The notes under the pieces: model-generated
Seen by the model: only the letters and a program-made list of their open reading frames with translations
Told to the model about the DNA's origin: nothing
Databases searched by the model: none
Program-made: the position numbers and the translations under genes
Assembly: GCF_032337115.1 (NCBI RefSeq)
Contig: NZ_JAVXZY010000003.1
Coordinates: 211,959-275,958, forward strand
Length of the DNA: 64,000 nt
Direction of reading: 5' to 3'
Origin: Roseateles aquae
Lineage (GTDB): Bacteria; Pseudomonadota; Gammaproteobacteria; Burkholderiales; Burkholderiaceae_C
Shown: positions 4,346 through 61,472 of the stretch, in pieces
How positions within the stretch are numbered: position 1 is the stretch's first letter
Layout: each line of letters starts with the position of its first letter

Positions 4346-4437
4346 AGGTCGCGAGTATGCGAGTGAGGGGGTTCCCCGCGAATAGGGGGTTGCCTGGATG
4401 TAAGGTCTTCAGATACCCAAATGCGTCGAACTGCTGT

Positions 4438-14004: not shown

Positions 14005-14080
14005 GGCCTGGTAGCTCAGTTGGTAGAGCAGCGGATTGAAAATCCGCGTGTCGGTGGTTCGATTCCGCCCCAGGCCACCA
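14005..14080 (+). tRNA. tRNA-Phe (GAA)
   Basis: Cloverleaf read by eye. The acceptor pairs GGCCTGG/CCAGGCC, the anticodon loop is TTGAAAA, the T-arm is GGTTCGATTCC, and CCA is encoded. Confidence 0.85.
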
Positions 14081-14126
14081 AGACAATGGACTGCTGTTCA
14101 CCAAACAGCGGGCCGCAAAAGTCAAA

Positions 14127-14212
14127 GCGGGATTAGCTCAGTTGGTAGAGCGATACCTTGCCAAGGTATAGGTCGAGAGTTCGAGCCTCTTATCCCGCTC
14201 CATATCAGCCGC
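14127..14212 (+). tRNA. tRNA-Gly (GCC)
   Basis: The acceptor pairs GCGGGAT/ATCCCGC, the anticodon loop is TTGCCAA, the T-arm is AGTTCGAGCCT, and CCA is encoded. Confidence 0.85.
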
Positions 14213-14223
14213 TCAGGCATCTT

Positions 14224-14298
<75 letters not shown>

Positions 14299-14337
14299 GT
14301 CAGAAGGCAGCCCGGGTAGAGCCGGCAAAAAATTGAA

Positions 14338-14372
14338 AGCCCCGCACAGTTCGCTGTCCGGGGCTTTTCTGT
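14338..14372 (+). terminator. Rho-independent terminator of the tRNA cluster
   Basis: The GC stem GCCCCGCACAG...CTGTCCGGGGC is followed by TTTTCTGTTT. Confidence 0.7.
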
Positions 14373-14684
14373 TTCTGGCTGTTCATCTACAAGCTGTGGA
14401 GGCGCATAGCGCGGCCTTGGACGAGTGACGAGGCGAGTGCGCCAAGTTGCCAACGTCGGTTGCAGGCTTGGCCCGAGTCTCCCGAAACTTGAACTCCACG
14501 CCGGCCGCACGCCGCGCCATGTCGAAGCGCGAGCGCAGGCCGAACATGCCCCGCACCTTGTCGTCATCGTCCTGAATCAGTCAAGCGCCATGTAGGGCTG
14601 TGCTGGCAAAAAGGGGCAAGCCCCGGACGGCGCGCTGTCCAGGGCTTCTTGGGCGGGTGATCGATGTTCGTCTGGCGCAGGGGC

Positions 14685-22545: not shown

Positions 22546-22654
22546 CGTAGGGCGGGTCATTAGACCCGCGCTGCGCCCTAGCAAATAGCTGGTCAGTGAC
22601 GTGCTATTGAAAAAGGCGGGTTACGCCTTTGGCTAACCCGGCCTACGTGGCTCG
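22546..22654. repeat. Composite palindromic repeat, copy 1 (hairpin GCGGGTC-N3-GACCCGC plus hairpin GGCGGGTTACGCC...GGCTAACCCGGCC), ends CGTAGGG...CCTACG
   Basis: About 85% identical to a second copy at 24605-24738. The two copies are in direct orientation and bracket a two-gene segment. Confidence 0.7.
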
Positions 22655-23313: not shown

Positions 23314-23382
23314 GAGCTTCTCCAATCAAAAGGGGGGTGAGGAACCAGTCTGTCGATCAGCGTGCTGCCAGCGCTCAGGCGC

Positions 23383-24456
23383 TCAGGCGCCCAGGCAGCT
23401 GAGCATGTCGTGGATCGCCTTGATCTGCACGGCCTGCTGCGAGAAGTAGTCAGGGGCCCTGGCGTCGGCGGCGCTATAGCCCCACCAGTCCCAGCAACCA
23501 TCGGGGTTCTGGGCCTTGTTGTTGTCGCGCCCCTCGGCCTGGGGATAGAGCACGATCAGATGGTTGCTGTCTGCCATCTGGTTGTAGCCGGTGCTGGTGA
23601 CGTAGCGGGTGCCGTAGGGGGGCTGATTGGCCTTGTCGAGGCGGCCGTAGAGAAAGTCGGTATAGGCGTAGCCCTGCTTGCAGCCGTGCAGCGCGATATG
23701 CACGCGCGCTGGCGCGCCGTCGAGCACGGCCTGCGGGATGTAGATATAGCCCAAGCGGCTCATGCTGGCGCGGTCGCGGTCGCCAATGAAGGGGCTTTGA
23801 TCGAAGCGCAGCAGCTGGCCGGTGAGCCGCTCGGCCGGAGCTTGGAGGTCGGGATAGAGATGGCGCAGGATGTCGTGCGATTGCATGAAGCCGCCGTTGT
23901 TCAGGTAGGGCGGGCAGTTCTGCGACAGCTCGGAATCCTCGGGGTTGCTGGTGATCAGCGAATGCCCGGCCGGCACATTGTCCACATAGGCCAGGCGCTC
24001 GCCGCTGATGCCCAGCGCCTCGTAGAAGGCGCGGGTCTGCGCCACCACCAGCGGATGCACGACCTGATCGCGGCTGCCGGTGAACAGGTAGACACGCTGG
24101 GACGCCAGATGGCTGAGCGGGTCGATCAGCCGGTCGGCCTCGGCCTCGCGGGCCAGCTGCAGGCAGCGCCGGGCGCTGGGTGCCGTGCTCTCGGTCAGCG
24201 GTGCCATGCCGATCTGCATGGCGGTGAGGATGCAGGCATCCTCGGCCAGCGGCGCCGCAGCCGGAAACAACTCGGCGCAGCGATACGGCCCGCCGGCGAC
24301 GATGCCGGCGCCAACGAAGCTGGCCGAGTGCGCAAGGTGCAGCTGCACCGTCATGAAGGCGCCCGAGGACAGGCCGGAGACCGAGCTTTGCCCGCGCTCC
24401 ACCTTGAGCTTGAGGGTGGACAGATCGAGCACCTCGGACGAAGAAAATGCTGTCAT
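23383..24456 (-). CDS. PHB-depolymerase-family esterase (alpha/beta hydrolase)
   Basis: C-terminal motifs LHGCKQGY, NHLIVLYPQAEG and NPDGCWDWWGY are typical of the esterase/PHB depolymerase family. The start was trimmed to MTAFSSS and there is no signal peptide. Confidence 0.7.
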   Translation of the reverse strand: MTAFSSSEVLDLSTLKLKVERGQSSVSGLSSGAFMTVQLHLAHSASFVGAGIVAGGPYRCAELFPAAAPLAEDACILTAMQIGMAPLTESTAPSARRCLQLAREAEADRLIDPLSHLASQRVYLFTGSRDQVVHPLVVAQTRAFYEALGISGERLAYVDNVPAGHSLITSNPEDSELSQNCPPYLNNGGFMQSHDILRHLYPDLQAPAERLTGQLLRFDQSPFIGDRDRASMSRLGYIYIPQAVLDGAPARVHIALHGCKQGYAYTDFLYGRLDKANQPPYGTRYVTSTGYNQMADSNHLIVLYPQAEGRDNNKAQNPDGCWDWWGYSAADARAPDYFSQQAVQIKAIHDMLSCLGA

Positions 24457-24604: not shown

Positions 24605-24738
24605 TAGGGCGGGTCAATCGACCCGCGCGGCACCTTTGGCTCGGCTACTGTTCGTCACAAGGGCTTCCGACGCGTACCGGTAAATGACGTGCCGTTGGGG
24701 AAGGCGGGTTACGCCGTTGGCTAACCCGGCCTACGCCG
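24605..24738. repeat. Composite palindromic repeat, copy 2
   Basis: Shares GTAGGGCGGGTCA(AT)CGACCCGCGC and ...GACGTGCCGTTGGGGAAGGCGGGTTACGCCGTTGGCTAACCCGGCCTACG with copy 1. The middle section is longer. Confidence 0.7.
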
Positions 24739-42602: not shown

Positions 42603-42613
42603 ACGCCCAAGGG

Positions 42614-42712
42614 AACCGACCACAGAGACATGGAGACACAGAGAAGTCAGCCTCAAAGCCTTGCTGTCTCCTTGCATTCCTCTGTGGCTCTGTGGCTCTG
42701 TGACTCAGTGGT
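42614..42712 (+). repeat. CACAGAGACA(C/T)GGAG hairpin repeat, copy A (hpaF-hpaH gap)
   Basis: The arms ACCACAGAGACATGGAGACACAGAG ... CCTCTGTGGCTCTGTGGCTCTGTG form a long imperfect inverted repeat. Confidence 0.8.
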
Positions 42713-42760
42713 TTTGTTTTGTGTGTCACGCGCAAAGCGCCGAAAGAATGGAATTCCGAC

Positions 42761-43567
42761 ATGGCCCTTGCACCCGAACTGATCAACACCCTGGCCCGCC
42801 AGCTGTTTGAGGCGCGCCAGCAGCGCCAGTCGCTGCGGCAGTTCTCGCGCCAGCATTCGGAGATGACGCTGGCCGATGGCTATGCGATCCAGCGGGCCTG
42901 GGTGGCGCTGGAGCTGGCGGCGGGGCGGCGGGTGCGTGGGCACAAGATCGGCTTGACCTCGCGGGCGATGCAGCTGAGCTCGCAGATCGACGAGCCCGAT
43001 TACGCGCCGCTGATGGACGATATGCTCTTTGAGCCCGGGGGCGACATCCCCATCGATCGATTCATCGCGCCGCGGGTCGAGGTCGAACTGGCTTTCATCC
43101 TCGGTCGCGATCTGCAGGGGCCTGGCGTGACGCTGTTTGATGTGCTGGCCGCGACCGAGTGGGTGACCCCGGCGATCGAGATCATCGATGCGCGGCTGGA
43201 ACAGTTCGACCGCGACACCCGCGCGCCACGCAAGGTCTTCGACACCATTGCCGACTTCGCCGCCTGCGCCGGCATCGTCATGGGCGGCCGGCCGGTGCGT
43301 GTCGATTCGCACGACCTGCGCTGGATCGGCGCCATGCTGTTCAAGAACGGCGTCATCGAAGAGACCGGCCTGGCCGCCGGCGTGCTCAACCACCCTGCGA
43401 TGGGCATCGTCTGGCTGGCCAACAAGCTGGCCGCGCATGGCGAGGGCCTGAAGGCCGGCGAGGTGGTGTTGGCCGGCTCCTTCACCCGCCCCACACCGGC
43501 CGTGGCCGGTGACAGCTTCCATGTCGACTACGGCCCGCTGGGCGTGGTCGCGTTCCGTTTTGCCTGA
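42761..43567 (+). CDS. hpaH: 2-oxo-hept-4-ene-1,7-dioate hydratase
   Basis: MhpD/HpaH hydratase family motifs ([23 protein letters not shown]). The start was trimmed to MALAPEL. Confidence 0.8.
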
Positions 43568-43572
43568 TCTAT

Positions 43573-43668
43573 GGAAGGAATGCAGACCACAGAGACACGG
43601 AGCCACAGAGGAAAACCAAGTGCTGTTTTGAATTCCTCTGTGTCTCCGTGTCTCTGTGGTTGGTTCTG
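43573..43668 (+). repeat. CACAGAGACACGGAG hairpin repeat, copy B (hpaH-hpaI gap)
   Basis: Arms ACCACAGAGACACGGAGCCACAGAGG ... CCTCTGTGTCTCCGTGTCTCTGTGGT. Confidence 0.8.
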
Positions 43669-43690
43669 ATTTCAATGGCGAGGATGAACA

Positions 43691-44506
43691 ATGAAGATGC
43701 CCCGCAACACCTTCGCCGCCGCGCTGCGCGCCGGCCGTCCGCAGATCGGCCTCTGGCTCGGTCTGGCCAGCAGCTATTCGGCCGAGTTGCTGGCCGGCTG
43801 CGGCTATGACTGGCTGCTGATCGACGGCGAGCATGCGCCCAACACGGTGCCCAGCATGCTCACGCAGCTGCAGGCGCTGGCCGCCTATCCGGTGCAGCCC
43901 ATCATCCGCCCGGTGCAGGGGGAGACGGCGCTGATCAAGCAGCTGCTGGACATCGGCGCACAGACGCTCCTGGTGCCCATGGTCGACAGCGCAGAGCAGG
44001 CCCGTGCGCTGGTGGCGGCGACCCGCTATCCGCCACAGGGCATCCGCGGTGTGGGTGCGGCGCTGGCGCGGGCCTCGCGCTGGAACCAGATCCCCGGCTA
44101 TCTGCAACAGGCCAACGAGGAGGTCTGCCTGCTGGTGCAGGTGGAGACGGTGTCAGGTCTTGCCCAGCTCGATGCGATCACCGCGGTGGATGGCGTCGAT
44201 GGCGTGTTCTTCGGCCCGGCCGATCTGTCGGCGTCTATGGGCCATCTGGGCCAGCCCGGCCATCCCGAGGTGCAGCGCGCGCTGATCGACGGCATCGCCC
44301 GCGTTCGCGCCGCCGGCAAGGCGCCGGGCATTCTGGCCACCGATCCCCTGATGGCGCGCCAGTACCTGGCGGCCGGGGCGCTGTTCGTCGCCGTCGGCCT
44401 CGATACCGCCTTGCTGCAGCGCGGCGCCACCGAGCTGCGCCGCCAGTTCAAGCCCGATGACAGTGCGCCCACCGAGGGCGCCGCCAGCCCGCGAGGAGGC
44501 TATTGA
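43691..44506 (+). CDS. hpaI: 4-hydroxy-2-oxoheptanedioate aldolase
   Basis: HpcH/HpaI aldolase motifs ([41 protein letters not shown]). Confidence 0.8.
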
Positions 44507-45261
44507 TGAGCGATCTGGAGCGCATGGACATCAGCCCGCAGGAGCGCGAGGCGCGCATCCAGCTGGCCGCCGCCTACCGCATCTTCGACATGCTGGGCTG
44601 GAGCGAGCTGATCTACAACCACATCTCGCTGCGCGTGCCGGGCGAGCCGCAGCACTTCCTGCTCAACCCCTTTGGCCTGCGCTATGACGAGGTTTGCGCC
44701 TCGAACCTGGTCAAGGTCGACGGCGAGGGCCGCATCATCGGCAGCAGCCGCTGGCCGATCAATCCGGCCGGCTTCACCTTCCACGGCGCCATCCATCGCA
44801 CACTGCCCGAGGCGCATTGCGTGATGCATGTGCACACGACGCCAACGATGGCCGTCTGCTGCCTGGACAGCGGCCTGGACTTCAGCAACTTCTACGCGGC
44901 CCAGCTGTGGGGCAAGGTCGCGTATCACGAGTTCGAGGGCATCACCGTCCATGCCGAGGAGGGCGCGCGCATCCTCGCCAGCGCCGTGGGCAAGCCGGTG
45001 CTGCTGCTGCGCAACCATGGCCCGGTGGTGATCGGCTTTGGCCTTGCCCAGGCCTTCTCGCTGATGTGGCTGCTGCAGCGCGCCTGCGAGGTGCAGTTGG
45101 CCACGGCCAGCATGGGCGCGGCGCGACAGATCGCCGAGCCGGTGCTGGCCGGCTGCGTGCGCGACTCGCTGAACTTCAACCCCAAGTTCGGCGCGGGGCA
45201 GGATGCTTTCGATGCGCTGCGGCGCAAGGTCGAGCGGATGGATCCGTCTTACCGCGATTGA
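44506..45261 (+). CDS. Class II aldolase/adducin-family protein
   Basis: Metal-binding His pattern of FucA/adducin-type class II aldolases (HVHTTP...H). The ATG at 44506 follows a GAGGAGG RBS and overlaps the hpaI stop. Confidence 0.7.
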   Translation: MSDLERMDISPQEREARIQLAAAYRIFDMLGWSELIYNHISLRVPGEPQHFLLNPFGLRYDEVCASNLVKVDGEGRIIGSSRWPINPAGFTFHGAIHRTLPEAHCVMHVHTTPTMAVCCLDSGLDFSNFYAAQLWGKVAYHEFEGITVHAEEGARILASAVGKPVLLLRNHGPVVIGFGLAQAFSLMWLLQRACEVQLATASMGAARQIAEPVLAGCVRDSLNFNPKFGAGQDAFDALRRKVERMDPSYRD

Positions 45262-45640
45262 TTGAATGAATGCAAACCACAGAGACACGGAGACACGGAG
45301 GAAAACAGGAGGATTGCGTCCGTTCAAACTCTGTGTTCCCTCTGTGTCTCCGTGTCTCTGTGGTCGTTTCCCCGCGCCGCGCGATCGAGTGAAGGAATGA
45401 ATGCAAACCACAGAGACACGGAGACACGGAGGAAAACAGGAGGATTGCGTCCGTTCAAACTCTGTGATCCCTCTGTGTCTCCGTGTCTCTGTGGTCGGTT
45501 CCCCGCGCAGCGCGATCGAGAGAAGGAACGAATGCGAACCACAGAGACACAGAGCCACGGAGGAATGCAGGACGATGACATCCGTTCAAGCTCTGTGTTC
45601 CCTCTGTGTCTCCGTGTCTCTGTGGTCGGTTCCCCAAGCG
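45262..45640 (+). repeat. Tandem array of three CACAGAGACACGGAG hairpin-repeat units of about 125 bp each
   Basis: Three head-to-tail units. Each has the arms CCACAGAGACACGGAGACACGGAGG ... CCTCTGTGTCTCCGTGTCTCTGTGG, then a short spacer (GGTTCCCCGCGC(A/C)GCGCGATCGAG(A/T)GAAGGAA). Confidence 0.85.
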
Positions 45641-45672
45641 GCAGGGGACAATAAGCGCTTCGGAGTGAAGAG

Positions 45673-46680
45673 ATGACAGCAGTCAAGAAAATGAGAATTT
45701 GCATTGTTGGGGCGGGCGCCATTGGCGGCTGGTTCGCGGCCCATTGCGGGCACAAGCTGGCTGGCGAAGTGCAGCTCAGCGCGCTGGCCCGCGGCGCCAC
45801 GCTGGCGGCGCTGCGTGAGCACGGCCTGCGCATGGACAGCGGCGGCGAGCGCATCGTCGTGCCGATCACGGCCAGCGATGTGCCGGCCGAGCTGGGCGCG
45901 CAGGATCTGATCGTGCTGGCCGTCAAGGGCCCGGCGCTGGCCGGCGTGGCGCCGGCCGTGCGCCAGCTGCTCGATCAATCGCCCGGCGCCCATGTGCTGG
46001 TGGCGATGAACGGCGTGCCCTGGTGGTTCTTTGATGGCCTGGAGGGCCCCTGCCGCGGCCTGCGCCTGCAGTCGGTCGATGCCGGCGGCGTGGTGGCCGG
46101 CCTGATCCCGGCCGAGCGGGTGATCGGCTCGGTCGTCCATGCCAGCTGCGCCGTGCCCGAGCCGGGCCTGGTGCGCCATGTGATGGGCATGGGCCTGATC
46201 CTCGGCGATCCGGCCGGTGGCCGGCCGGCGCATATCGAGGCACTGGCCGCGCTGCTGCAGCGCGCCGGTTTCAACGCGACGGTGTCGGAGCGCATCCAGA
46301 AGGACATCTGGTACAAGCTCTGGGGCAATATGACGGTCAACCCGATCTCGGCGCTGACCGGCGCGACCACCGACCGCATCATGAACGACGAGCTGGTGCT
46401 GGGCTTTGTCTCGGCGGTGATGCGCGAGGCCTCGGCCATCGGCGATCAGATCGGCTGCCCGGTCGGCCAGACGCCCGAGCAGCGCCACGAGATCACCCGC
46501 AAGCTCGGCGCCTTCAAGAGCTCGATGCTGCAGGACGTCGAGGCCGGCCGCACGATCGAGCTCGATGCCCTGGTCAGCTCGGTGCGCGAGATCGGCCAGC
46601 ACATCGGCACGGCCACGCCCAATATCGACGCGATGCTGGGCCTGACCCGGCTGATGGCGCAGACCCGCGGCCTGCTCTGA
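45673..46680 (+). CDS. 2-dehydropantoate 2-reductase family (PanE/ApbA-like) oxidoreductase
   Basis: Rossmann motif ICIVGAGAIGG and the ApbA C-terminal domain. It is the last gene of the hpa-linked block. Confidence 0.7.
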   Translation: MTAVKKMRICIVGAGAIGGWFAAHCGHKLAGEVQLSALARGATLAALREHGLRMDSGGERIVVPITASDVPAELGAQDLIVLAVKGPALAGVAPAVRQLLDQSPGAHVLVAMNGVPWWFFDGLEGPCRGLRLQSVDAGGVVAGLIPAERVIGSVVHASCAVPEPGLVRHVMGMGLILGDPAGGRPAHIEALAALLQRAGFNATVSERIQKDIWYKLWGNMTVNPISALTGATTDRIMNDELVLGFVSAVMREASAIGDQIGCPVGQTPEQRHEITRKLGAFKSSMLQDVEAGRTIELDALVSSVREIGQHIGTATPNIDAMLGLTRLMAQTRGLL

Positions 46681-46690
46681 TTCGCGGCAG

Positions 46691-47641
46691 TCAGACCGCC
46701 GGCCGGCGCCGCTTGTCGCGGAAGAATTCAAACGCGACTTCGGCGCTGTCGACATCGGCGTTCTGCGCGCCGGTCAGGGCATTGATCCACCACGGATAGC
46801 GATGCCGCGCGCTCGGTTCGGCATGGCCGGCACCGTCGACGCGCAAGAGCACGGCCTGCAGCGACGCACCAGGCTCGCCCCATTGCAGGCGCGTCACCTC
46901 AGTCTTGCAATCGCTGGATGTGAGCGTCTCGCTACGCGGCGCGCCGCCAAGGCCGGCCAGCTCGCGCCAGACCTGCAGCGAGGCCTCGATGCCCAGCATC
47001 TCGCCGGCCTGGCGGCGGTTCTTGCGAAAGGCGCCGCCCTCGTAGCGCACCAGCGGGTCGTGGCGGCTGGCGATCATCAGCAGCGGCAGCGCATGGCGCG
47101 GCGCCGGTACGCGGCTGTTTTTCGGCATCGAGGCCAGCACCGGCGCGAAGGCGGCGAGCCGCGGGCCCAGCTCCGCGGCGAGGCGAAAGCTCATCATGCC
47201 GCCCTTGGACACGCCCATCAGGTAGATGCGTTCGGCATCGGCGCCGTGCGCGGCGATCAAGGTGCTGATCAGTCCATCGATGAAACCGACATCGTCCCAA
47301 TCGCCGCTGGCGCTGGCGTCGGCAAAGCCGTCGTTCCAGCGCTGGCGCTGGCCGTCCGGCGCGGCGATGAGCCAGCCCTCGCGTTCGGCGATCTCACGCC
47401 AATGGGCCAGCGGCGAGGGCGGGAAAGCCTCGCCGAGCAGCTGCTTGCCGGAGGCGCCAAAGCCGTGCAGAAGAATGACTGTCGGGCGTGCGGCCGTGCT
47501 GGGCTGCGAAGGCGCGGCCAGCCAGACCTGGCGCGGGCCGTTCGGGCTCGGCTGGCTCAGCGCCTGCAGCGCAGCGCGCGGGCCGCTCCAAGCGCTGCCG
47601 CCCAACAGCAGGCGACGCCAGAATGGAGTTGCAGCGCTCAT
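46691..47641 (-). CDS. Secreted alpha/beta hydrolase, LpqC/PHB-depolymerase-family esterase
   Basis: Signal peptide, oxyanion region VILLHGFGASG, and nucleophile elbow GVSKGG. The start was trimmed to MSAATPF. Confidence 0.7.
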   Translation of the reverse strand: MSAATPFWRRLLLGGSAWSGPRAALQALSQPSPNGPRQVWLAAPSQPSTAARPTVILLHGFGASGKQLLGEAFPPSPLAHWREIAEREGWLIAAPDGQRQRWNDGFADASASGDWDDVGFIDGLISTLIAAHGADAERIYLMGVSKGGMMSFRLAAELGPRLAAFAPVLASMPKNSRVPAPRHALPLLMIASRHDPLVRYEGGAFRKNRRQAGEMLGIEASLQVWRELAGLGGAPRSETLTSSDCKTEVTRLQWGEPGASLQAVLLRVDGAGHAEPSARHRYPWWINALTGAQNADVDSAEVAFEFFRDKRRRPAV

Positions 47642-49410
47642 GCTTGTTCCCCGGTCTGCAACCGCCACAGCGCCGCGTAAGCGCCGCCACGGGCCAGCAG
47701 ATCCTCATGGCGGCCGCTCTCGATGATGCGGCCGCGTTCCAGGAGGTGGATGCAGTCGGCCTGGCGCACGGTCGAAAGCCGGTGGGCAATGATCAGCGTC
47801 GTGCGGCCCTGGCTGACGACCGCCAGTGAGCGCTGGATCGCGGCTTCGGTTTCGTTGTCGACCGCGCTGGTCGCCTCGTCGAGGATCAGCAGCGGCGGGT
47901 TCTTCAGGATGGCGCGGGCCAGGGCCAGGCGCTGGCGCTGGCCGCCACTGAGCTTCTGGCCGCGCTCGCCGACGCGGGTGGCAAAACCCAGCGGCAAGCG
48001 CTCGATGAACTCCAGGCTTTCCGAGAGGCGCGCCGCCTCGAGGATCTGCGCCTCGCTGGCACCGTCGACGCCATAGGCGATGTTCTCGGCAATGGTGCCG
48101 TCGGTCAGGAAGCTGTCCTGCGCGACATAGCCGATGCAGCGGCGCAGATCCTGCAGATTCAGCTCGGCAATGGCAATGCCGTCGAACAGGATGCGGCCCT
48201 GCTGCGGCTCGTAAAACCGCAAGAGCAGCTTGACCAGCGTGGACTTGCCCGAGCCGGTGCTGCCGACGAAGGCCACCGTCTGGCCGGGGGCGATGCTGAG
48301 GGTCAGGTCTTGCAGCGTCGGCGTTTCGGCATAGGCAAAGTTCACGCCCTCAAACTGCAAGGCGGCGCGGGCCTGCTCGGGGCGCAGATGCTGGCCCTCG
48401 TAGGCAATGCCGATCGGCGTTTCCAGCAGGCCCAGTGCCCGCTGGGTCGAGGCCATCGAGCGCTGGTACATATCGGCGACCTCGGCCAGCCGCGTCATCG
48501 GCCAGAGCAGGCGCTGGGTCAGGAAGACCAGCACCGAATAGGCGCCCACCTCCAGGCCGCCATGCAGGGTCAGCCAGCCGCCATAGACCAGCGTTGCGGT
48601 GAAGCCGGCCAGGATGGCCATGCGAATCACCGGCGTGATCGCCGAGCTGAAGCGGATCGCCCGGGCGTTGGCGCTGCGATAGCGGTCGCTGGCCTCGCGG
48701 ATGTGTTCGGCCTCCAGCGCCTCGGTGGCAAAAGCCTTGATCGTGGCCAGGCCGAGCAGGTTGTTGTTCAGCCGGGCGCTGACATCACCAGCCGCCTCGC
48801 GCACCTCGGCATAGCGTGGCGCCAGCCGCTTCTGGAACCAGAAGGCGCCGAACAGGATCAGCGGAATCGGCAGCAGCGCGATCAGCGCAATGCCCGGCTG
48901 CAGCGCAAAGAACACCGCGCTGATCATCACCGAGGAGCACAGCACCTGGATGATCTGGGTGGCGCCGCCGTTGAGGAAGCGCTCCATCTGGTTGATGTCG
49001 TCATTGAGCACCGACATCAGCGCGCCGGTGCGCTGGTTCTCAAAGAAGGACAGCGAGAGCTTTTGCACATGCTGGTAGCTGTCCAGCCGCAGATCGTGCT
49101 GGATGTCCTGCGCCAGGCCGCGCCATTTCAGCTCCAGCAGGTATTCGAAGAAGGACTCGCCGCACCAGACCAGCACGTTCAAGCTGCCCAACACCAGCAG
49201 CTGCTGCCAGGTGTCGCTGATGCCAAAGCCGAGCAGCACCTTGCGCGCCAGAAAGCTTTGGTCGCCACGGACGACGACGTCGACCGCCGCGCCGATCAGC
49301 ACCTCGGGCAGGATGTCGAAGAACTTGTTGAGGACGGTGTACAGCGTGGCCAGGCGGATCTGGGCACGGTAGGCGCTGGCATAGGCCAGCAGCATTTTCA
49401 ATGGATGCAT
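47638..49410 (-). CDS. ABC transporter ATP-binding/permease fusion (MsbA-like type I exporter)
   Basis: Six-TM N-terminal domain plus NBD with Walker A (GSTGSGKST), signature LSGGQRQRLALARA and Walker B (ILDEATSAVD). Confidence 0.85.
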   Translation of the reverse strand: MHPLKMLLAYASAYRAQIRLATLYTVLNKFFDILPEVLIGAAVDVVVRGDQSFLARKVLLGFGISDTWQQLLVLGSLNVLVWCGESFFEYLLELKWRGLAQDIQHDLRLDSYQHVQKLSLSFFENQRTGALMSVLNDDINQMERFLNGGATQIIQVLCSSVMISAVFFALQPGIALIALLPIPLILFGAFWFQKRLAPRYAEVREAAGDVSARLNNNLLGLATIKAFATEALEAEHIREASDRYRSANARAIRFSSAITPVIRMAILAGFTATLVYGGWLTLHGGLEVGAYSVLVFLTQRLLWPMTRLAEVADMYQRSMASTQRALGLLETPIGIAYEGQHLRPEQARAALQFEGVNFAYAETPTLQDLTLSIAPGQTVAFVGSTGSGKSTLVKLLLRFYEPQQGRILFDGIAIAELNLQDLRRCIGYVAQDSFLTDGTIAENIAYGVDGASEAQILEAARLSESLEFIERLPLGFATRVGERGQKLSGGQRQRLALARAILKNPPLLILDEATSAVDNETEAAIQRSLAVVSQGRTTLIIAHRLSTVRQADCIHLLERGRIIESGRHEDLLARGGAYAALWRLQTGEQA

Positions 49411-49508
49411 GGCGGCCGCGCGGCCCGTCTGGCCGCGCTTGAATCAGAGCTGGGAACGGCCGCCAGTATCGGTGCAGTCCTGCTTTGATCAGCCTTGATC
49501 AACTTTGA

Positions 49509-50087
49509 TCAACCCAGGGGCCGCACACCGATCAGCAGTGCATGGGCCCAGAAGGCGAACAGCGCCCAGAGCGCCGCGCCGATCAGCACGGTGAGCAGCG
49601 TGGCGCCGATGCGGGGCGTGATGGCGGCGGGCGGATTCAGACGGTCACGCTGGCGTGCCGAGCGGAAGCACAGCACCGACCAGATCAGAAAGCCGCCGAA
49701 CAGCAGCAGCTCGGGCAGGGTGTTGTTGGCGAGCAGATGCGCCAGCGCCCAGACCTTGACGCCCAGCAGCATCGGATGCCCCAGCCGCGCCTTCAGATGG
49801 TTGTGGGGCACATAGGCGGCCACCAGCAGCACCAAGCTCAGCAGCATCAGCAGGGCGGCCAGGTGGTTCATACCGCGCGGCGTGGCCCAGAGCACCAGCG
49901 CGTCCTGGCGGGCCTGACCGAAACCCCAGATGATCAGGGCAAAGCCCAGCAGCGATATCGCCGTGTAGCCCAGCTTCCAGGCGTTTTCGCCGATGGCGGC
50001 GCGGCGCGCGCTGCGCCAGTCTTCGGCAATGATGCGCGTCGAGTGCACGCCAAGGAAGAGGATCAGGCCAAGAATCAAGGCAGTCAT
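49509..50087 (-). CDS. NnrU-family integral membrane protein
   Basis: About 190 aa with 5 TM and NnrU-like conserved His/Trp-rich helices. The start was trimmed to MTALILG. Confidence 0.55.
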   Translation of the reverse strand: MTALILGLILFLGVHSTRIIAEDWRSARRAAIGENAWKLGYTAISLLGFALIIWGFGQARQDALVLWATPRGMNHLAALLMLLSLVLLVAAYVPHNHLKARLGHPMLLGVKVWALAHLLANNTLPELLLFGGFLIWSVLCFRSARQRDRLNPPAAITPRIGATLLTVLIGAALWALFAFWAHALLIGVRPLG

Positions 50088-50279
50088 GCGGGGCTTTCTG
50101 CGTCGTTGCGCCACCTGGCAGGGGGCTGTACCGGGGTTGGAGATTCAGGCCGCTTTGTACGCGATTGCTGGCTTGGCTGCAGCGGTGTGTGCGGAAACAC
50201 AGCGTTTGCGTTTTTGCGGGCAGTCCTTGAATGCTGTATTCTGTAAATATATTTAACCGATTGATCTCGGAGGCAAGAC

Positions 50280-51512
50280 ATGACCCTGGGTGTGGGCGGC
50301 AAGACCGCGGCGGCCGCTTTGGCTTCTCTCGACAACATGATGGCCGGTGTGCAGCCGATTGGCCTGGCCGAGTACCAGGCCCGCATCGCACGCGCCCAGG
50401 CGCTGATGCGTGAGCAGGGCTGGGCCGCGATCTATGTCCATGCCGGCACCAATCTGCGTTATTTCACCGGCACCGTCTGGCATCCGAGCGAACGGCTGGT
50501 CGGTGCGCTGATCCCGGCCGAAGGGGCGCCGCAGTACCTGGCGCCGGCCTTCGAGGAGGGCACGCTGCGCGAGTACATGGTCGTGCCCGGCGCCTTGCAT
50601 TTGTGGCAGGAGCACGAGAGCCCTTATGCCTTGCTGCTGCGCGTGCTGCGCGAGATGGGGGTGGTCGAAACCGCGCCGGTCGGGCTCAGCGAAGACTGCC
50701 CGTTCTTCGTCGTCGACGGCCTGCGCGAGCAGTCGGAGCGCCAAGCCTGGCGCAATGCCAAGCCGGTGACGGCCGGCTGCCGGATGCGCAAGAGCGCCGC
50801 CGAGCTGGCGCTGATGCAGCGCGCCCATGACATGACGCTGGCCGTGCACCGCGCCACCGCCAGCATGCTGCACGAGGGCATCAAGACGACCGAGGTCGAG
50901 GCCTTCATCGCTGAGGCCCATCGCAAGGTCGGCGCCAGCGGCTCCTACTTCTGCATCGTGCTGTTCGGTGGCGCCACGGCCTTTCCGCATGGCGTCAAGG
51001 AGGCGCAGCAGCTGCGCGACGGCGATATGGTGCTGATCGACACCGGCTGCCTGGTGCAGGGCTATATGTCCGACATCACGCGCAGCTATGTGTTCGGCAC
51101 GCCCACGGCGCGGCAGCGCGAGATCTGGAATCTGGAGAAGGCGGCGCAGGCGGCGGCTTTTCAAGCGGCGCAGCTGGGCGTGCCCTGCTGCGAGGTCGAT
51201 CGCGCGGCGCGCCGCGTGCTGCGCGCCGGCGGCTTGCTGCCGGGCGCGGACAGTCCGAGCTATGCCTTGCCGGGCCTGCCGCACCGCACCGGCCACGGCT
51301 GCGGCCTGGACATCCACGAATGGCCCTATCTGGTCGACAACGACAGCACGCCGCTGGCCGAGGGCATGTGCTTCAGCAACGAGCCGATGATCGTCTGCCC
51401 GGGCGAATTCGGCGTCCGCCATGAAGACCATGTCTTCATGAGCGCCAGCGGCCCGCGCTGGTTCACGCAGCCCTCGCCCTCGATCGACGATCCCTTCGGC
51501 CTGGGGGCTTGA
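50280..51512 (+). CDS. M24-family Xaa-Pro peptidase (creatinase N-domain + pita-bread domain)
   Basis: Metal ligands in DTGCLVQGYMSDITRS and HRTGHGCGLDIHEWP, plus E in CFSNEPMI. Confidence 0.8.
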   Translation: MTLGVGGKTAAAALASLDNMMAGVQPIGLAEYQARIARAQALMREQGWAAIYVHAGTNLRYFTGTVWHPSERLVGALIPAEGAPQYLAPAFEEGTLREYMVVPGALHLWQEHESPYALLLRVLREMGVVETAPVGLSEDCPFFVVDGLREQSERQAWRNAKPVTAGCRMRKSAAELALMQRAHDMTLAVHRATASMLHEGIKTTEVEAFIAEAHRKVGASGSYFCIVLFGGATAFPHGVKEAQQLRDGDMVLIDTGCLVQGYMSDITRSYVFGTPTARQREIWNLEKAAQAAAFQAAQLGVPCCEVDRAARRVLRAGGLLPGADSPSYALPGLPHRTGHGCGLDIHEWPYLVDNDSTPLAEGMCFSNEPMIVCPGEFGVRHEDHVFMSASGPRWFTQPSPSIDDPFGLGA

Positions 51513-51518
51513 GCTGCT

Positions 51519-51713
51519 TCAGGCCAGGCGCTGAACTGAAGCGTCAGCACTGGCCTGGCTGACGTCGCCTTCGACCAGGCTGAGCAGCGAGAAGCCGCCG
51601 GCCAGCGTCAGTGCGGCAATCAACCAGCCCAGACCCTGCCAGGCCAGATGGCGCAGGGTGTCGCTCAGCGGCTCGGGCCGGGCGGGGCTGGCAGTGGCAA
51701 TCGACTTGTGCAT
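51519..51713 (-). CDS. Small hypothetical membrane protein (64 aa)
   Basis: Strong RBS (AAGGAG, 7 nt spacing) and one TM (LGWLIAALTLAGGFSLLSL). Confidence 0.35.
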   Translation of the reverse strand: MHKSIATASPARPEPLSDTLRHLAWQGLGWLIAALTLAGGFSLLSLVEGDVSQASADASVQRLA

Positions 51714-51744
51714 CGTGAACTCCTTGATGCAGTCAACAAGAAAG

Positions 51745-51882
51745 TCAGAGCGGCGCCAGGGCCCGCTCCAGGCTCCACAACAGGGCTGGATAGGCCAGGC
51801 CCCAAACGGCGGCGATCAGAACCAGGGCCTTCATCGCCAGCATCAGCTGCTGGCCGCGCTGGGCAAGGGGAAGTCGCTTCAT
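51745..51882 (-). CDS. Small hypothetical membrane protein (45 aa)
   Basis: RBS GAGGAG followed by ATG. One TM (LMLAMKALVLIAAVWGLAYPALLW). The track ORF was trimmed to the RBS-preceded Met. Confidence 0.35.
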   Translation of the reverse strand: MKRLPLAQRGQQLMLAMKALVLIAAVWGLAYPALLWSLERALAPL

Positions 51883-52076
51883 GGTGGTGCACTCCTCAAC
51901 AGGTAGGCATACAACGAGCAAGTGCCGTGCCAGGACGACAGCGGCCGAAAAACAAAACATTCGTCCTGGGCGCTGAATGAGGCGGCAGGCGCCGACAGGG
52001 CGGGCATCTCTGGGTTCAAGTCATGCCTTGGTGCTGCGGGCACCAGGCTGGGGCGCCGCCACATGGGCTGTGATGC

Positions 52077-52577
52077 TCAGGCGCTGCGATCCACCCGCAG
52101 CGCCAGCACCACCGAGGTGGTGGTCTTGATCACGCCCTCGATCTCGCCGATCTCATCGAGCAGCGCATCGAGCCGCATTGTTGTGTCGGCGCGCAGCAGG
52201 GCCATGTAGTCGAACTCGCCGCTGACCGAGGCGAGCTGGCGCAGCTCCGGCAACCGGCTCAGCTGGCGGATCACCTCGCGCTGCGCCTTGGGCTGCACGC
52301 TGATGCCGACAAAGGCCTGCACGCCGCGGTCGCTGGCCTCGGAGCCGAGCTTGGTTGTGTAGCCAACGATCACCCCTTCGCTTTCCAGCCGCGCCAGCCG
52401 GGCGACAACGGTGGTGCGCGCCACGCCCAGCTTGCGTGCCAGATTGGCGGTGCTTTCGCGCGCATTGGCCTGCAGCAGCGCGATCAGCTCGCGGTCGGTC
52501 TGGTCCTTGGCCGTGGCCGGTGCGGTGACGCTGGGCTGCACCGCCCGGGCGGCAACGGTCTTGCGCGTGCTGCTCAT
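52077..52577 (-). CDS. Lrp/AsnC-family transcriptional regulator
   Basis: HTH_AsnC (DRELIALLQANARESTANLARKLGVARTTVVARLARLE) plus a RAM domain. It is divergent from the lysine-catabolic genes. Confidence 0.8.
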   Translation of the reverse strand: MSSTRKTVAARAVQPSVTAPATAKDQTDRELIALLQANARESTANLARKLGVARTTVVARLARLESEGVIVGYTTKLGSEASDRGVQAFVGISVQPKAQREVIRQLSRLPELRQLASVSGEFDYMALLRADTTMRLDALLDEIGEIEGVIKTTTSVVLALRVDRSA

Positions 52578-52718
52578 GGATAACCCTTGTTTTTGCCGAT
52601 CTGGCGAAAGTGAATGACGAATCGTCAATTTCACCAGAAGTTTCGACGAACTTGCGCTTTTTTTCGTCAGCAGCTCTGCCTAGACTGCGTCCCATCAACC
52701 CGTATTGAGGAGCATCAA

Positions 52719-53810
52719 ATGAAGATCGCATTGTTGGGCGCTGGCCATATCGGTGAAACCATTGCACGTCTGCTGCATGGCTCGGGCCACTACGACGTGA
52801 CCGTGTTCGACAAGAACGCCGCGGCGCTGGCCGTGCTGTCGGGCGAGGGCATCAAGACCCAGGTCGTCAGCGAAATCGGTGCTGGCGCTGCCGCCCAGGT
52901 GCGTGGCTTCAATGCGATCGTCAATGCGCTGCCCTACCAGCTGGCCATCCCCGCTGCCCATATGGCGCTGGAAGCCGGCTGCCACTACTTCGACCTGACC
53001 GAGGACGTGGCCGCCACCAAGGAAATCATGCGCATCGCCGAAGGCGCCAAGACCGCCTTCATGCCGCAGTGCGGCCTGGCTCCTGGTTTCATCGGCATCG
53101 TCGCCGCTCACCTGGCCAAGAGCTTTGACAGCCTGCACGACGTGAAGATGCGCGTCGGCGCGCTGCCGGCCTTCCCGACCAATGCACTGAAGTACAACCT
53201 GACCTGGTCGGTCGATGGCCTGATCAACGAGTACTGCCATCCCTGCGAGTGCATCCACGACGGCGAGAAGATCGACGCGCTGCCGTTGGAAGGCCTGGAG
53301 CACTTCTCGCTCGACGGCACCGAGTACGAAGCCTTCAACACCTCGGGTGGCCTGGGCACGCTGTGCGAAACGCTGTCCGGCAAGGTGCGCAACCTCGACT
53401 ACAAGACGGTGCGCTACCCCGGCCACCGCGACCTGATGCAATTCCTGCTCGGCGATCTGGCACTGAAGAACGACCAGGAGCTGCTGAAGGACATCATGCG
53501 CAAGAGCATGCCGGCCACCATGCAGGACGTGGTGCTGGTGTTCGTGACCGTCTCCGGCATGAAGAACGGCCGCCTGGTGCAGGAAGTGTTCGCCCGCAAG
53601 ATCTTCGCCGAGCGCGATGGCGCCCGCCCGCTGTCGGCCATCCAGATCACCACCGCCGCCGGCATGTGCGCCGCGGTCGACCTGTTCCGCCAGGGCAAGC
53701 TGCCGCAGTCCGGCTTCATCTCGCAGGAAGAGGTCTCGCTGCCCGAATTCCTGGCCAATGAGTTCGGCAAGGCCTATCAGCAATCGCGCCAGGTCGAGTC
53801 CATCGGTTGA
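52719..53810 (+). CDS. Saccharopine dehydrogenase-family NAD(P) oxidoreductase (probable L-lysine 6-dehydrogenase/LysDH-like)
   Basis: Rossmann motif MKIALLGAGHIGETIA and the Sacchrp_dh C-terminal domain. It sits directly upstream of the P6C dehydrogenase. Confidence 0.65.
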   Translation: MKIALLGAGHIGETIARLLHGSGHYDVTVFDKNAAALAVLSGEGIKTQVVSEIGAGAAAQVRGFNAIVNALPYQLAIPAAHMALEAGCHYFDLTEDVAATKEIMRIAEGAKTAFMPQCGLAPGFIGIVAAHLAKSFDSLHDVKMRVGALPAFPTNALKYNLTWSVDGLINEYCHPCECIHDGEKIDALPLEGLEHFSLDGTEYEAFNTSGGLGTLCETLSGKVRNLDYKTVRYPGHRDLMQFLLGDLALKNDQELLKDIMRKSMPATMQDVVLVFVTVSGMKNGRLVQEVFARKIFAERDGARPLSAIQITTAAGMCAAVDLFRQGKLPQSGFISQEEVSLPEFLANEFGKAYQQSRQVESIG

Positions 53811-53825
53811 GCGGAGAATCCCGGG

Positions 53826-55331
53826 ATGACTACGCAAACCACTGATCTCCTGAACGCCCTGGGCGTTCCTTCCTCCGCTTACACCGGCGGCACGCTGAAG
53901 GTGCGCTCGCCCATCGATGGCGCGACCATCGGCGTCGTGCATGAGGCTTCGGCCGAGGACATGCGCGCCGCCGTCGAGCGCGGCCACGCCGCCTTCCTGC
54001 AATGGCGCAATGTGCCCGCTCCCAAGCGTGGCGAGCTGGTGCGCCTGTTCGGCGAAGAGCTGCGCAAGCACAAGGCCGATCTGGCCCGCCTGGTCTCGCT
54101 GGAAGCCGGCAAGGTGAGCAGCGAAGGCGAGGGCGAGGTCCAGGAGATGATCGACATCTGCGACTTCGCCGTCGGTCTCTCGCGCCAGCTGCATGGCCTG
54201 ACCATCGCCAGCGAGCGCCCCGGCCACCGCATGATGGAGCAGTACCTGCCGCTGGGCGTGGTCGGCATCATCTCGGCCTTCAACTTCCCCGTGGCCGTGT
54301 GGGCCTGGAACTCGGCGCTGGCCCTGGTCTGCGGCGATACCTGCATCTGGAAACCTTCCGAAAAGACGCCGCTGACGGCGCTCGCGACCCAGGCGCTGTT
54401 CGAGCGCGCGGTCGCCCGGTACGAGGGTGCGCCTGCCCATCTGTCGCAGCTGCTCAACGGCGACGCGGCGGTGGGCGAGGCGATGGTGGACCACCCCAAG
54501 GTGGCCCTGGTCTCGGCCACCGGTTCGACGCGCATGGGCCGTGCCGTCGGTCCGCGCGTGGCGGCCCGCTTCGGCCGTTGCCTGCTGGAACTGGGTGGCA
54601 ACAACGCCATCATCGTGACCCCCAGCGCCGACATGGACCTGGCCGTGCGCGGCATCCTGTTCGGCGCCTATGGCACGGCCGGCCAGCGCTGCACGACGAC
54701 GCGTCGCGTCATCGCTCACGAGAGCATCCATGACGAACTGGTGGCCCGTCTGGACAAGGCCCGCGCCCAGCTGAAGATCGGAAATCCGATGGAAGCCGGC
54801 AACCTGATCGGCCCGCTGATCGACAAGGGTTCCTTCGACGCGATGCAGGCCGCACTGGCCGCCGCGCGCGAGCAGGGTGGCCAGGTCAGCGGCGGTGAGC
54901 GCGCGCTGGCCGAGCAGCATCCGGACGCCTTCTACGCCGTGCCGGCGCTGGTGCGGATGCCGGCGCAGACCGAGATCGTCAAGCACGAGACCTTCGCGCC
55001 CATCCTGTACACGCTGAAGTACAAGACGCTGGACGAAGCGATCGCGCTGCAGAACGAGGTGCCGCAAGGCCTCTCGTCGGCGATCTTCACCAACGACATC
55101 CGTGAAGCCGAAACCTTTGTTTCGGCCAGCGGGTCGGACTGCGGCATCGCCAACGTCAATATCGGCACCTCCGGTGCCGAGATCGGTGGCGCTTTCGGTG
55201 GCGAGAAGGAAACCGGCGGCGGCCGCGAATCCGGCTCCGACGCCTGGAAGGCCTATATGCGCCGCACGACCAACACGGTCAACTACTCGCGCGAACTGCC
55301 CTTGGCTCAAGGTGTGAAGTTCGACATCTGA
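53826..55331 (+). CDS. amaB: L-piperideine-6-carboxylate (alpha-aminoadipic semialdehyde) dehydrogenase, ALDH7 family
   Basis: ALDH7-type signature (GLTIASERPGHRMMEQY, ELGGNNAIIV, RCTTTRRV) with the catalytic Cys, 501 aa. Confidence 0.75.
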   Translation: MTTQTTDLLNALGVPSSAYTGGTLKVRSPIDGATIGVVHEASAEDMRAAVERGHAAFLQWRNVPAPKRGELVRLFGEELRKHKADLARLVSLEAGKVSSEGEGEVQEMIDICDFAVGLSRQLHGLTIASERPGHRMMEQYLPLGVVGIISAFNFPVAVWAWNSALALVCGDTCIWKPSEKTPLTALATQALFERAVARYEGAPAHLSQLLNGDAAVGEAMVDHPKVALVSATGSTRMGRAVGPRVAARFGRCLLELGGNNAIIVTPSADMDLAVRGILFGAYGTAGQRCTTTRRVIAHESIHDELVARLDKARAQLKIGNPMEAGNLIGPLIDKGSFDAMQAALAAAREQGGQVSGGERALAEQHPDAFYAVPALVRMPAQTEIVKHETFAPILYTLKYKTLDEAIALQNEVPQGLSSAIFTNDIREAETFVSASGSDCGIANVNIGTSGAEIGGAFGGEKETGGGRESGSDAWKAYMRRTTNTVNYSRELPLAQGVKFDI

Positions 55332-55349
55332 GCGCGACCCGGCGTCGGA

Positions 55350-55430
55350 ACACGCCACAGAGACACAGAGACACGGAGATCCAGGGCTGAGGCTCTGCAT
55401 TCCTCTGTGTCTCCGTGGCTCTGTGGGTGC
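55350..55430 (+). repeat. CACAGAGACACGGAG hairpin repeat, copy D (amaB-hglS gap)
   Basis: Arms CCACAGAGACACAGAGACACGGAG ... CCTCTGTGTCTCCGTGGCTCTGTGG. Confidence 0.8.
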
Positions 55431-55457
55431 CTTCTTTGAATTTCTAGACTGACCCCC

Positions 55458-60839: not shown

Positions 60840-60924
<85 letters not shown>

Positions 60925-60930
60925 AACAAG

Positions 60931-60966
60931 AAAGGCCAGCACGAAAGTGCTGGCCTTTTGCGTTTT
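60931..60966 (+). terminator. Rho-independent terminator after tRNA-Leu (first copy of a 47-bp direct repeat)
   Basis: AAAGGCCAGCAC-GAAA-GTGCTGGCCTTTTGCGTTTT. Confidence 0.75.
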
Positions 60967-60974
60967 GGGGCTTG

Positions 60975-61248
60975 GGCAGCACTGAATCGGTCCCCGCATG
61001 CCGCGTTTGCGAGAGAAGCGGCCGGATCGAAGGCGCAGTGCGAAGGTCGGGCTGGCGGCCCGACAGCCGAGCGCTGCAACGCCCGAGACGGCCGCTTCTC
61101 TCGCAAACCCTTCAGGGGCGGACCTTTGCGGGCGCTGGCCGGCGTTGCAATCCTTGCACAGGCCAACCAGCCTGTGCTGCGGCTCGCGCCTTGCCCAGCC
61201 TCCCGCAAAGACCCCGCCGCGGCGCACGGGGACTGATTCAGTGCTGCC
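60975..61248. repeat. Nested-palindrome element (outer 22-bp and inner 20-25-bp inverted repeats), MITE-like or structured RNA
   Basis: The outer arms GGCAGCACTGAATCGGTCCCCG and CGGGGACTGATTCAGTGCTGCC match at 21 of 22. The inner arms are GTTTGCGAGAGAAGCGGCCG and CGGCCGCTTCTCTCGCAAAC. Confidence 0.6.
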
Positions 61249-61378
61249 TCAGGAAGTCCAGCCCACTGCAGGCTGGACGGGAGGACGAGAAAGGCGGCGC
61301 CTGCAAGCGCCGCCGGGGTCGCGCCGGTGTGACCGAGTCCTCTACTGGGCTGAGGCCGGCTCGCATGCAAGCGAGCCG

Positions 61379-61425
61379 GCACCAAACAAGAAAGGCCAGC
61401 ACGAAAGTGCTGGCCTTTTGCGTTT
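61379..61425 (+). repeat. Second copy of the 47-bp tRNA-Leu 3'-flank/terminator direct repeat, preceded by a degenerate tRNA T-arm/acceptor remnant
   Basis: CACCAAACAAGAAAGGCCAGCACGAAAGTGCTGGCCTTTTGCGTTTT is identical to 60920-60966. Upstream, GAGTCCTCTACTGGGC resembles the tRNA-Leu 3' end GAGTCCTCTCCTGGGC. Confidence 0.7.
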
Positions 61426-61472
61426 TCAGCGTCCCAATGGCTCAGTCGGCTGTTGCGCTGGCTGGCCGGAAG

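Follow-up and report, generated by a model that had tools for sequence, protein, structure and literature searches.

Miniature inverted-repeat transposable elements (MITEs), including the Correia elements and the enterobacterial repetitive intergenic consensus (ERIC) sequences, lack an open reading frame (ORF), lie between genes, are co-transcribed with them, and share their terminal inverted repeats with an ORF-bearing relative; their RNA hairpins are possible RNase targets. Free-standing homing endonuclease genes of phage operons are small nuclease genes that lie co-directionally between host genes and are transcribed by the host, are not bounded by inverted repeats, and propagate by homing into a cognate allele. 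Repetitive extragenic palindromic (REP) units are self-palindromic with a GTAG head, and the gene of their Y1 (IS200-like) transposase is flanked by REPs. The intervening sequences (IVS) of rRNA genes, known from Leptospira, Coxiella, and Salmonella, have complementary borders and can contain an ORF; RNase III cuts them out of the transcript (PMC4990558). Here we analyzed a family of hairpin repeats in a 64,000-nucleotide (nt) stretch of the Roseateles aquae genome (contig NZ_JAVXZY010000003.1, positions 211,959 to 275,958), which we call the window and number from its first letter. At a probability of about 0.7, we conclude that the six hairpin units of the window are ORF-less, nonautonomous copies of a hairpin-bounded mini-cassette that carries the gene of a GxxExxY protein, a putative nuclease, and that the cassette behaves by the mechanism proposed below.

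The units and their relatives share some properties with each of these systems and differ from all of them. Like MITEs, the units have terminal inverted repeats in common with an ORF-bearing element. Unlike in MITE pairs, that element encodes a 125-amino-acid (aa) protein of the PD-(D/E)XK fold instead of a known transposase, the arms are T-free 8-nt sub-repeats in three copies that are conserved across phyla, and the loops are not conserved between copies. The likeness to REPs and to their paired form, the REPINs, lies in the dispersed intergenic palindromes, in doublets that form long hairpins, and in the possibility that mRNA stability is affected. The arms of the window differ from REP units, as the 25-nt arm consists of A, C, and G only and has no self-complementarity. 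No gene for a REP-associated tyrosine transposase (RAYT) was found between arms in 200 related loci, where the recurrent gene is PF13366, and the ORFs of the window were not scanned for RAYT. Unlike homing endonuclease genes, the cassettes occur at many unrelated sites and have an ORF-less form. The rRNA IVS and the cassettes are alike in being selfish, in having long-stem borders and an optional small ORF in the loop (S23p, a four-helix-bundle protein, in the IVS), and in their sporadic, horizontally patterned distribution and decay-prone ORF. However, IVS sit in helices of 23S or 16S rRNA and are proven RNase III substrates, whereas the cassettes lie in the mRNA gaps of operons and their cleavage is only predicted; in place of S23p, their cargo is a PD-(D/E)XK nuclease between periodic arms conserved across phyla. 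No rRNA insertion site was found, since the sites in the window are mRNA intergenic gaps and 20 related loci contained no rRNA. The kind of element is a familiar one, in which nonautonomous palindromes are related to an ORF-bearing selfish element or an intervening sequence is bounded by a hairpin; the family is distinguished by its periodic T-free cross-phylum arms, its PD-(D/E)XK cargo, and its residence at operon junctions.

The six units (u1 to u6) lie at four intergenic sites of the window. They have one common orientation, because the direct-repeat families formed by their left and right halves (D3 to D5) are all on the + strand. Every unit also lies between + strand genes (hpaF/hpaH, hpaH/hpaI, class II aldolase/panE-like, and piperideine-6-carboxylate dehydrogenase/HglS-like), as the initial annotation of this DNA had said in describing the repeats as co-directional with their operons. 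That annotation had counted seven units with loops of 30 to 45 nt; coordinates and repeat analysis give six, and the loops measure 34, 23, 37, 37, 37, and 22 nt. The arms are 24 to 25 nt long and consist of three 8-nt units (CCACAGAG ACACGGAG ACACGGAG). The 25-mer arm CCACAGAGACACGGAGACACGGAGG, allowed up to 3 mismatches, matched the window 11 times, and 0.00 matches were expected from 100 dinucleotide-preserving shuffles, which confirmed the repeats at the places first reported. Beyond the known units, a 12-mer arm core gave a single chance match in the window, inside a tRNA. All six units fit the arm rule CC[AG]C..AG / [AG]C[AG]C..AG, with the CC end outermost and a T-free 5' arm. Units u3 to u5 form a tandem array with a period of 131 nt (45255-45647). 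Because T is absent from the left arm and A from the right arm, neither arm can carry a + strand stop codon, and for this reason a spurious ORF of 130 aa (45262-45654) runs across u3 to u5, one of the spurious ORFs that had been ascribed to the repeats. The window has one other run of three 8-nt periods (23370-23396, AGCGCTCAGGCGCTCAGGCGCCCAGGC), which has no inverted partner, lies in GC-rich coding-looking sequence, and is probably unrelated to the hairpins.

We scanned one genome per species with the 20-mer CCACAGAGMCACRGAGMCAC of the arm and found at least 119 genome stretches that contain it, spread over about a dozen phyla; by our own arithmetic, which assumes uniform base composition, ~9 matches would be expected by chance in 596 Gb. 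The matches listed came from Acidobacteriota, Planctomycetota, Verrucomicrobiota, Chlamydiota, Chloroflexota, Desulfobacterota, Spirochaetota, Bacillota, Bacteroidota, and Armatimonadota, as well as from alpha-, beta-, and gammaproteobacteria. Among the ~150 seed arms in these listed matches, 89 had an inverted partner at less than 200 nt, 15 had one at 200 to 700 nt, and 40 (~27%) were solo arms with no partner. The loops of the short hairpins were 8 to 155 nt long with unrelated sequences. The ORF-less hairpins outside the window lay in co-directional, convergent, and divergent gaps at 37:12:12, a ratio near the usual background for gene pairs. The arm consensus of the window units is the same as that of 78 hairpins elsewhere and of the arms flanking GxxExxY genes, and at the level of sequence this match places the window arms and the arms that bracket GxxExxY genes in many phyla in one family.

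Two further arrangements of such arms were observed at the related loci, which we cite by L numbers. Sister hairpin families have other 8- to 9-nt periodic arms (CCACGAAG, CCACCAAG, CACGGAGG, and CCACGAAA; L071 ~1370-1440, L095 ~6715-6800, L042 ~4630-4700, L074 7290-7720, L022, and L037), and some of them are nested directly within a CCACAGAG-type hairpin. This suggests that the periodic-arm hairpins form a superfamily whose elements insert into one another. At L008 (4098-4161), L012 (738-810), L032, L075, and L089, the layout is inside out, with a right arm followed after ~20 to 25 nt by a left arm; the CCAC ends face the loop, the inner extensions match, and no distal partner lies within 8 kb. 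Neither the inside-out loci nor the solo arms are accounted for by the cassette model as stated.

Where arms lie ~420 to 580 nt apart, they enclose one ORF, which encodes a GxxExxY protein of ~125 aa. The enclosed ORFs match TIGR04256 ("GxxExxY protein") at E values of 1e-44 to 1e-46 and PF13366 (PDDEXK_3) at 1e-42. We also approached the association from the gene side, using 80 metagenome loci (59 to 74% identity, from a scan with protein alignment) together with the genome loci and keeping the genes with enough flanking sequence. Periodic inverted arms with 8- to 9-nt units and an outer end (T)TCACC bracketed 73 of the 87 GxxExxY genes analyzed, and the distance between arms was mostly 426 to 480 nt in the full-length cassettes. 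The arm subtypes were CACGGAG (19), CACAGAG (17), CGCAGAG (12), CGCCGAG (7), CGCGGAG (7), and rarer ones, and the arm of the window is one of the two commonest. Both arms of a cassette belonged to the same class, CAC or CGC, in 65 of 71 cases; the two arms therefore change in concert, which shows that something keeps both matched. A second recurrent cargo was not found between arms, and larger distances held ordinary host genes between neighboring hairpins. The periodic-arm hairpin is the general boundary of GxxExxY genes, and that the arms form a cross-phylum boundary of nuclease gene cassettes is a point absent from the initial annotation.

The cassettes have a characteristic place in their host operons. 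The GxxExxY ORF was on the same strand as its upstream neighbor in 53 of 56 cases (P = 8e-13) and as its downstream neighbor in 48 of 56, where the neighbor was the longest flanking ORF, a crude gene call. Full-length cassettes are co-oriented with the host genes on their promoter side and begin a few nucleotides past the upstream stop codon. The cassette between trpE and trpG, for example, lies 4 nt past the stop codon and 15 nt ahead of the ATG in six of the places shown. Other cassettes occupy the junctions (of called genes) trpD/trpC, carA/carB, and moxR/DUF58 and a junction in a leucine-catabolism-like operon. Because cassettes lie in trp, car, and moxR junctions, the family as such is not tied to catabolic operons, and the restriction to catabolic operons first remarked on in the window was an effect of the small sample, as relatives lie at trpE/trpG, trpD/trpC, carA/carB, and moxR/DUF58. 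Outside the right arm of the trpE/trpG cassette (L201 ~4395-4450, L050), the sequence GTGG-TGAAAGG-N8-ATG gives the downstream gene a Shine-Dalgarno-like GAAAGG. Groups of loci carry a cassette at the same junction (L130/L154/L163/L180/L158/L138, L074/L165/L146/L187/L194, and L201-L206), and one junction may carry different arm subtypes, such as CACAGAG in L074 and CGCCGAG in L165. Such shared junctions may stem from long residence by vertical descent, with both arms changing in concert, or from repeated insertion at a hot spot.

The window units are ORF-less relatives of these cassettes and not full members, because their loops are 22 to 37 nt long and no GxxExxY ORF was found in the 64-kb window by a local hmmsearch. 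Their link to the ORF-bearing form is seen in the reading frame of the left arm. Of 69 cassettes, 46 keep this frame open across the left arm, and 13 have their sole plausible ATG just upstream of the arm. In a large, mostly betaproteobacterial subfamily with proteins of 130 aa, the N terminus MNHRDTE(T/A)QRDPLTEKVIG is the translated left arm. In u3 (ATG 45266) and u4 (ATG 45397), a start just 5' of the left arm reads MNANHRDTETRR (ATG...AAC CAC AGA GAC, or MNANHRDTE); a GAAGGA-like sequence is followed by ATGAATGCAAAC-CACAGAGAC..., and the frame of the arm is that of the 130-aa subfamily. This start and frame set the sense orientation of the units as the + strand, the direction of the operon. 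The ATG is in a different frame in u2 and u5. Most likely, u3 and u4 are ORF-less derivatives of a GxxExxY cassette, and the retained start is what a deletion derivative would keep.

Comparison with a relative showed that the units were added to a compact operon. The best match to HpaI of the window is 90% identical and lies on a 940-bp contig; the next, at 77%, is at locus L120, and named matches at ~70% are from Roseateles, Ideonella, Sphaerotilus, Bordetella, and Paraburkholderia. At L120, the genes follow one another as in the window (hpaE-D-F-H-I, class II aldolase, panE-like) without inserts, which supplied the comparison of orthologous operons proposed in the initial annotation. Its junctions measure 1, 23, 1, and -4 nt, versus 160, 123, and 411 nt at the three hairpin-holding junctions of the window operon, and each of these three is filled by units that lie 3' of the stop codon and 5' of the next ribosome-binding site. 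These results show that the units are insertions in an otherwise tightly packed operon. The coordinates and predicted folds of the units are given in Table 1.

Table 1. Hairpin units of the window and associated features, with predicted RNA folding energy and z score against shuffles
Feature	Coordinates	Strand	Position and structure	Energy (kcal/mol)	z
u1	42611-42718	+	hpaF/hpaH gap; outer stem GGGAACCGA; left arm 42620-42644; loop 34 nt; degraded copy; inverted repeats I9, I10, I13	-40.6	-1.5 (no better than shuffles)
u1 right arm	~42679-42711	+	four 8-mers; degraded
u2	43573-43668	+	hpaH/hpaI gap; left flank GGAAGGAATGCAGA; arms 43587-43611 and 43635-43659; loop 23 nt	-57	-8.8
u2 mini-ORF	ATG 43580	+	MQTTETRSHRG...
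u3	45255-45385	+	first tandem unit (direct-repeat family D1) after class II aldolase gene; arms 45277-45301 and 45339-45363; loop 37 nt	-61	-7.7
u4	45386-45516	+	second tandem unit; arms 45408-45432 and 45470-45494; loop 37 nt; 95% identity to u3	-62.3	-7.3
u5	45517-45647	+	third tandem unit; arms 45539-45563 and 45601-45625; loop 37 nt; 82% identity to u3	-58.6	-6.4
panE-like gene	start 45673	+	3' of u5
u6	55347-55433	+	piperideine-6-carboxylate dehydrogenase/HglS-like gap; arms 55355-55379 and 55402-55426; loop 22 nt	-50.2	-5.3

We propose the following mechanism for the family. The full-length form is an element of ~430 to 480 bp with one GxxExxY gene between inverted arms of three T-free CCACRGAG-type 8-nt units. 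It would act as a promoter-less selfish gene that is expressed by read-through of host operon transcription and would depend for its spread at the DNA level on the nuclease that it encodes, which would act on the arms or by way of them; each arm is conserved as a sequence in the way terminal inverted repeats are. The hairpins of the window would be the nonautonomous form, which is more numerous than the autonomous form among the arm matches listed, and these copies would be mobile only with the nuclease supplied in trans or would be immobile. In a polycistronic mRNA, the two arms are predicted to pair into a duplex of 25 to 35 bp that could be an RNase III-type substrate, by analogy with the rRNA IVS. 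A cut by RNase III would part the upstream from the downstream cistrons and leave stem-capped ends, and an altered relative mRNA stability could follow as a side effect without being the reason that the hairpins are present.

The RNA side of this proposal agrees with the initial annotation in part. The very stable stem-loops predicted there were obtained for five units (-50 to -62 kcal/mol, z of -5.3 to -8.8) and not for u1 (z of -1.5), and an effect of the hairpins on mRNA stability or processing is plausible. The suggested role as termination sites did not hold up, since a scan for terminators, which counted only loops of 3 to 8 nt, and for promoters placed neither kind of site at any hairpin, and direct reading of the six units showed no clean U-tract, with a T-rich run after u1 only. 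Intrinsic terminators were rejected on these two grounds. Integron attC sites were rejected as well: the RYYYAAC/GTTRRRY cores are absent, and the sequences flanking the six units and 78 relatives are of the TTCA/TGAA type, with no GTTRRRY. Clustered regularly interspaced short palindromic repeats (CRISPR) were likewise rejected, as inspection showed none of their repeat-spacer regularity. A scan of Rfam at gathering thresholds returned only tRNAs, and at E values up to 10 it added only generic microRNA-hairpin look-alikes, with 37 to 41 bits versus thresholds of 58 to 100.

Several results weigh against the cassette explanation or against parts of its mechanism. Besides the lack of the ORF in the window, where the loops are short, the ORF-less loops as a group are unrelated and range from 8 to 155 nt, which is poorly explained by simple internal deletion of one parent. 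A target-site duplication was not found, and the flanking tetranucleotides TTCA, TGAA, and TTAA mostly prolong the inverted repeat. Many cassettes are syntenic across genomes that are just 75 to 83% identical in DNA, which speaks for long residence and not for frequent movement. The link between protein clade and arm class is weak (43 of 72 agree, versus 33 expected), with no signal in distant pairs. Selection on the stem as RNA was also hard to detect. Among the transition mismatches in the stems of 73 cassettes, 97 gave a G.U pair on the sense strand and 92 did so on the antisense strand (P = 0.77); another 181 mismatches were transversions. In 78 short hairpins, the core positions were nearly invariant in each arm, and the variable positions 1 and 5 of the 8-mers paired at 0.72 to 0.74, versus 0.67 to 0.71 in shuffles. 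Clear covariation was limited to positions -1 and -2 in the outer flank and positions 22 to 24 on the inner side, where it may reflect subfamilies. Because there is no G.U excess and the pairing is near that of shuffles, RNA-level pairing is not demonstrably selected, and the arms therefore act more like two copies of a recognized sequence, as terminal inverted repeats do, than like a stem maintained by pairing alone.

The results can be read in other ways. If the hairpin were primary and independent, and the GxxExxY gene a later arrival that homes into loops as homing endonuclease genes do in intron loops, the window units would be hairpins that were never invaded. ORF-less hairpins outnumber ORF-bearing ones by ~10:1 among the arm matches listed, the loops are hypervariable, and cassettes with their own arms are nested within a second arm pair (L074, L187, and L194), all of which would fit this order of events, as would the occurrence of ORF-less hairpins in every gap type while the ORF-bearing ones are strongly co-oriented with host genes. 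We consider it unlikely because the arms lie at a fixed short distance from 73 of 87 GxxExxY genes and because, in the 130-aa subfamily, the left arm is coding and the start codon lies outside it. That u3 and u4 retain this start and frame is expected of a deletion derivative but not of a hairpin that was never invaded.

A reading in line with the initial annotation, that these are host-selected regulatory stem-loops that stabilize or process mRNA and so adjust the relative amounts of the hpa and lysine-catabolic enzymes, appears less probable again. It draws on the exactly intercistronic position of the units, past stop codons and ahead of the next ribosome-binding site, on the very stable predicted stems, and on the three tandem copies behind the aldolase gene. 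However, L120 has the same operon without hairpins, identical arms recur in unrelated contexts and phyla, the loops are unconserved, a G.U bias on the sense strand is absent, and no Rfam family matches. A regulatory effect, if any, is better read as a consequence of insertion, a plausible side effect and not the origin of the units. Movement of REPs or REPINs by a RAYT transposase, or a classical MITE of a DDE insertion sequence, is very improbable, although the units resemble such elements in being short imperfect palindromes scattered between genes, in having a tandem cluster, and in their outer tetranucleotide GTGG/CCAC. A single arm is not palindromic, as a REP must be; PF13366 is the only recurrent gene between arms in the 200 related loci, where no Y1 or DDE transposase gene was seen; no target-site duplication was found; and another repeat of the window, at 22591 and 24679, is closer to a REP. 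What survives of the label REP/MITE-like first given to the units is its second half, as they are dispersed, inserted, MITE-like palindromes in operons, whereas neither the arms, which are not self-palindromic, nor the recurrent cargo of related loci, a PD-(D/E)XK nuclease in place of RAYT, is of the REP type.

The protein encoded by the cassette belongs to a very large family. At E values up to 1e-3, 21,984 cluster representatives (50% identity) match GxxExxY / PDDEXK_3, which database curators regard as a multicopy family. A search of the Protein Data Bank (PDB) by sequence detected no solved structure for the GxxExxY protein, and a fold search returned the general PD-(D/E)XK fold, with Cas4 nearest and no substrate indicated. 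The top-scoring representatives (P0241 to P0251) contain the GxxExxY domain twice in 266 to 295 aa; gene callers have probably joined two tandem cassettes into each of them, a read-through that can arise because the arms are free of stop codons. In a survey of the superfamily, PDDEXK_3 was of unknown function and had undergone multiple transfers (PMC3424549). A description of the arm-bounded element was not found in the searchable literature, and a full-text literature search with the arm sequence returned unrelated eukaryotic primers only. We tentatively suggest, at somewhat less than even odds, that GxxExxY cassettes are an unrecognized class of minimal mobile element, in which the gene of a 125-aa Cas4/RecB-like nuclease within T-free, 8-nt-periodic repeats colonizes operon junctions across bacterial phyla as the mRNA counterpart of an rRNA intervening sequence; on this view, the cassettes would be nearly harmless to their hosts, since their arms are free of stop codons and their transcribed stem could be cleaved by RNase III.

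Other repeats of the window lie apart from the hairpin family. A 57-nt unit occurs twice (22591-22647 and 24679-24735, 86% identical) and ends in ...GGCGGGTTACGCCTTTGGCTAACCCGGCCTACG. This short unit forms an imperfect palindrome whose tail is CTAC, or GTAG when read from the opposite strand, and it fits a classical REP better than the hairpins studied here do. The 3' end of a tRNA (60840-60921) and a 42-nt terminator-like palindrome AAACAAGAAAGGCCAGCACGAAAGTGCTGGCCTTTTGCGTTT (60924-60965) are directly repeated at ~61335-61425. These tRNA-end repeats (60840-61427) bracket ~460 bp with a 41-nt inverted repeat of its own (60989-61029 / 61084-61124), and the region looks like the attL/attR scar of a small tRNA-integrated element. 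Three tRNA genes (14005-14295) are followed by a 41-nt inverted terminator-like pair (14337-14377 / 14607-14647).

The association ties a very large family, PDDEXK_3, to a defined, conserved DNA/RNA structure and so provides a concrete substrate to test. For genome annotation, the hairpins explain many spurious or N-terminally extended ORFs, recognizable by peptides such as HRDTETQR and LCVSVSLW, and the fused double-domain proteins. In the study of operons, the hairpins offer naturally occurring 25- to 35-bp duplex inserts between the cistrons of pathways such as hpa, trp, and car and are test cases for RNase III-dependent uncoupling of mRNA. The family also suggests a mode of genome parasitism that lies between MITEs, homing endonuclease genes, and rRNA intervening sequences.

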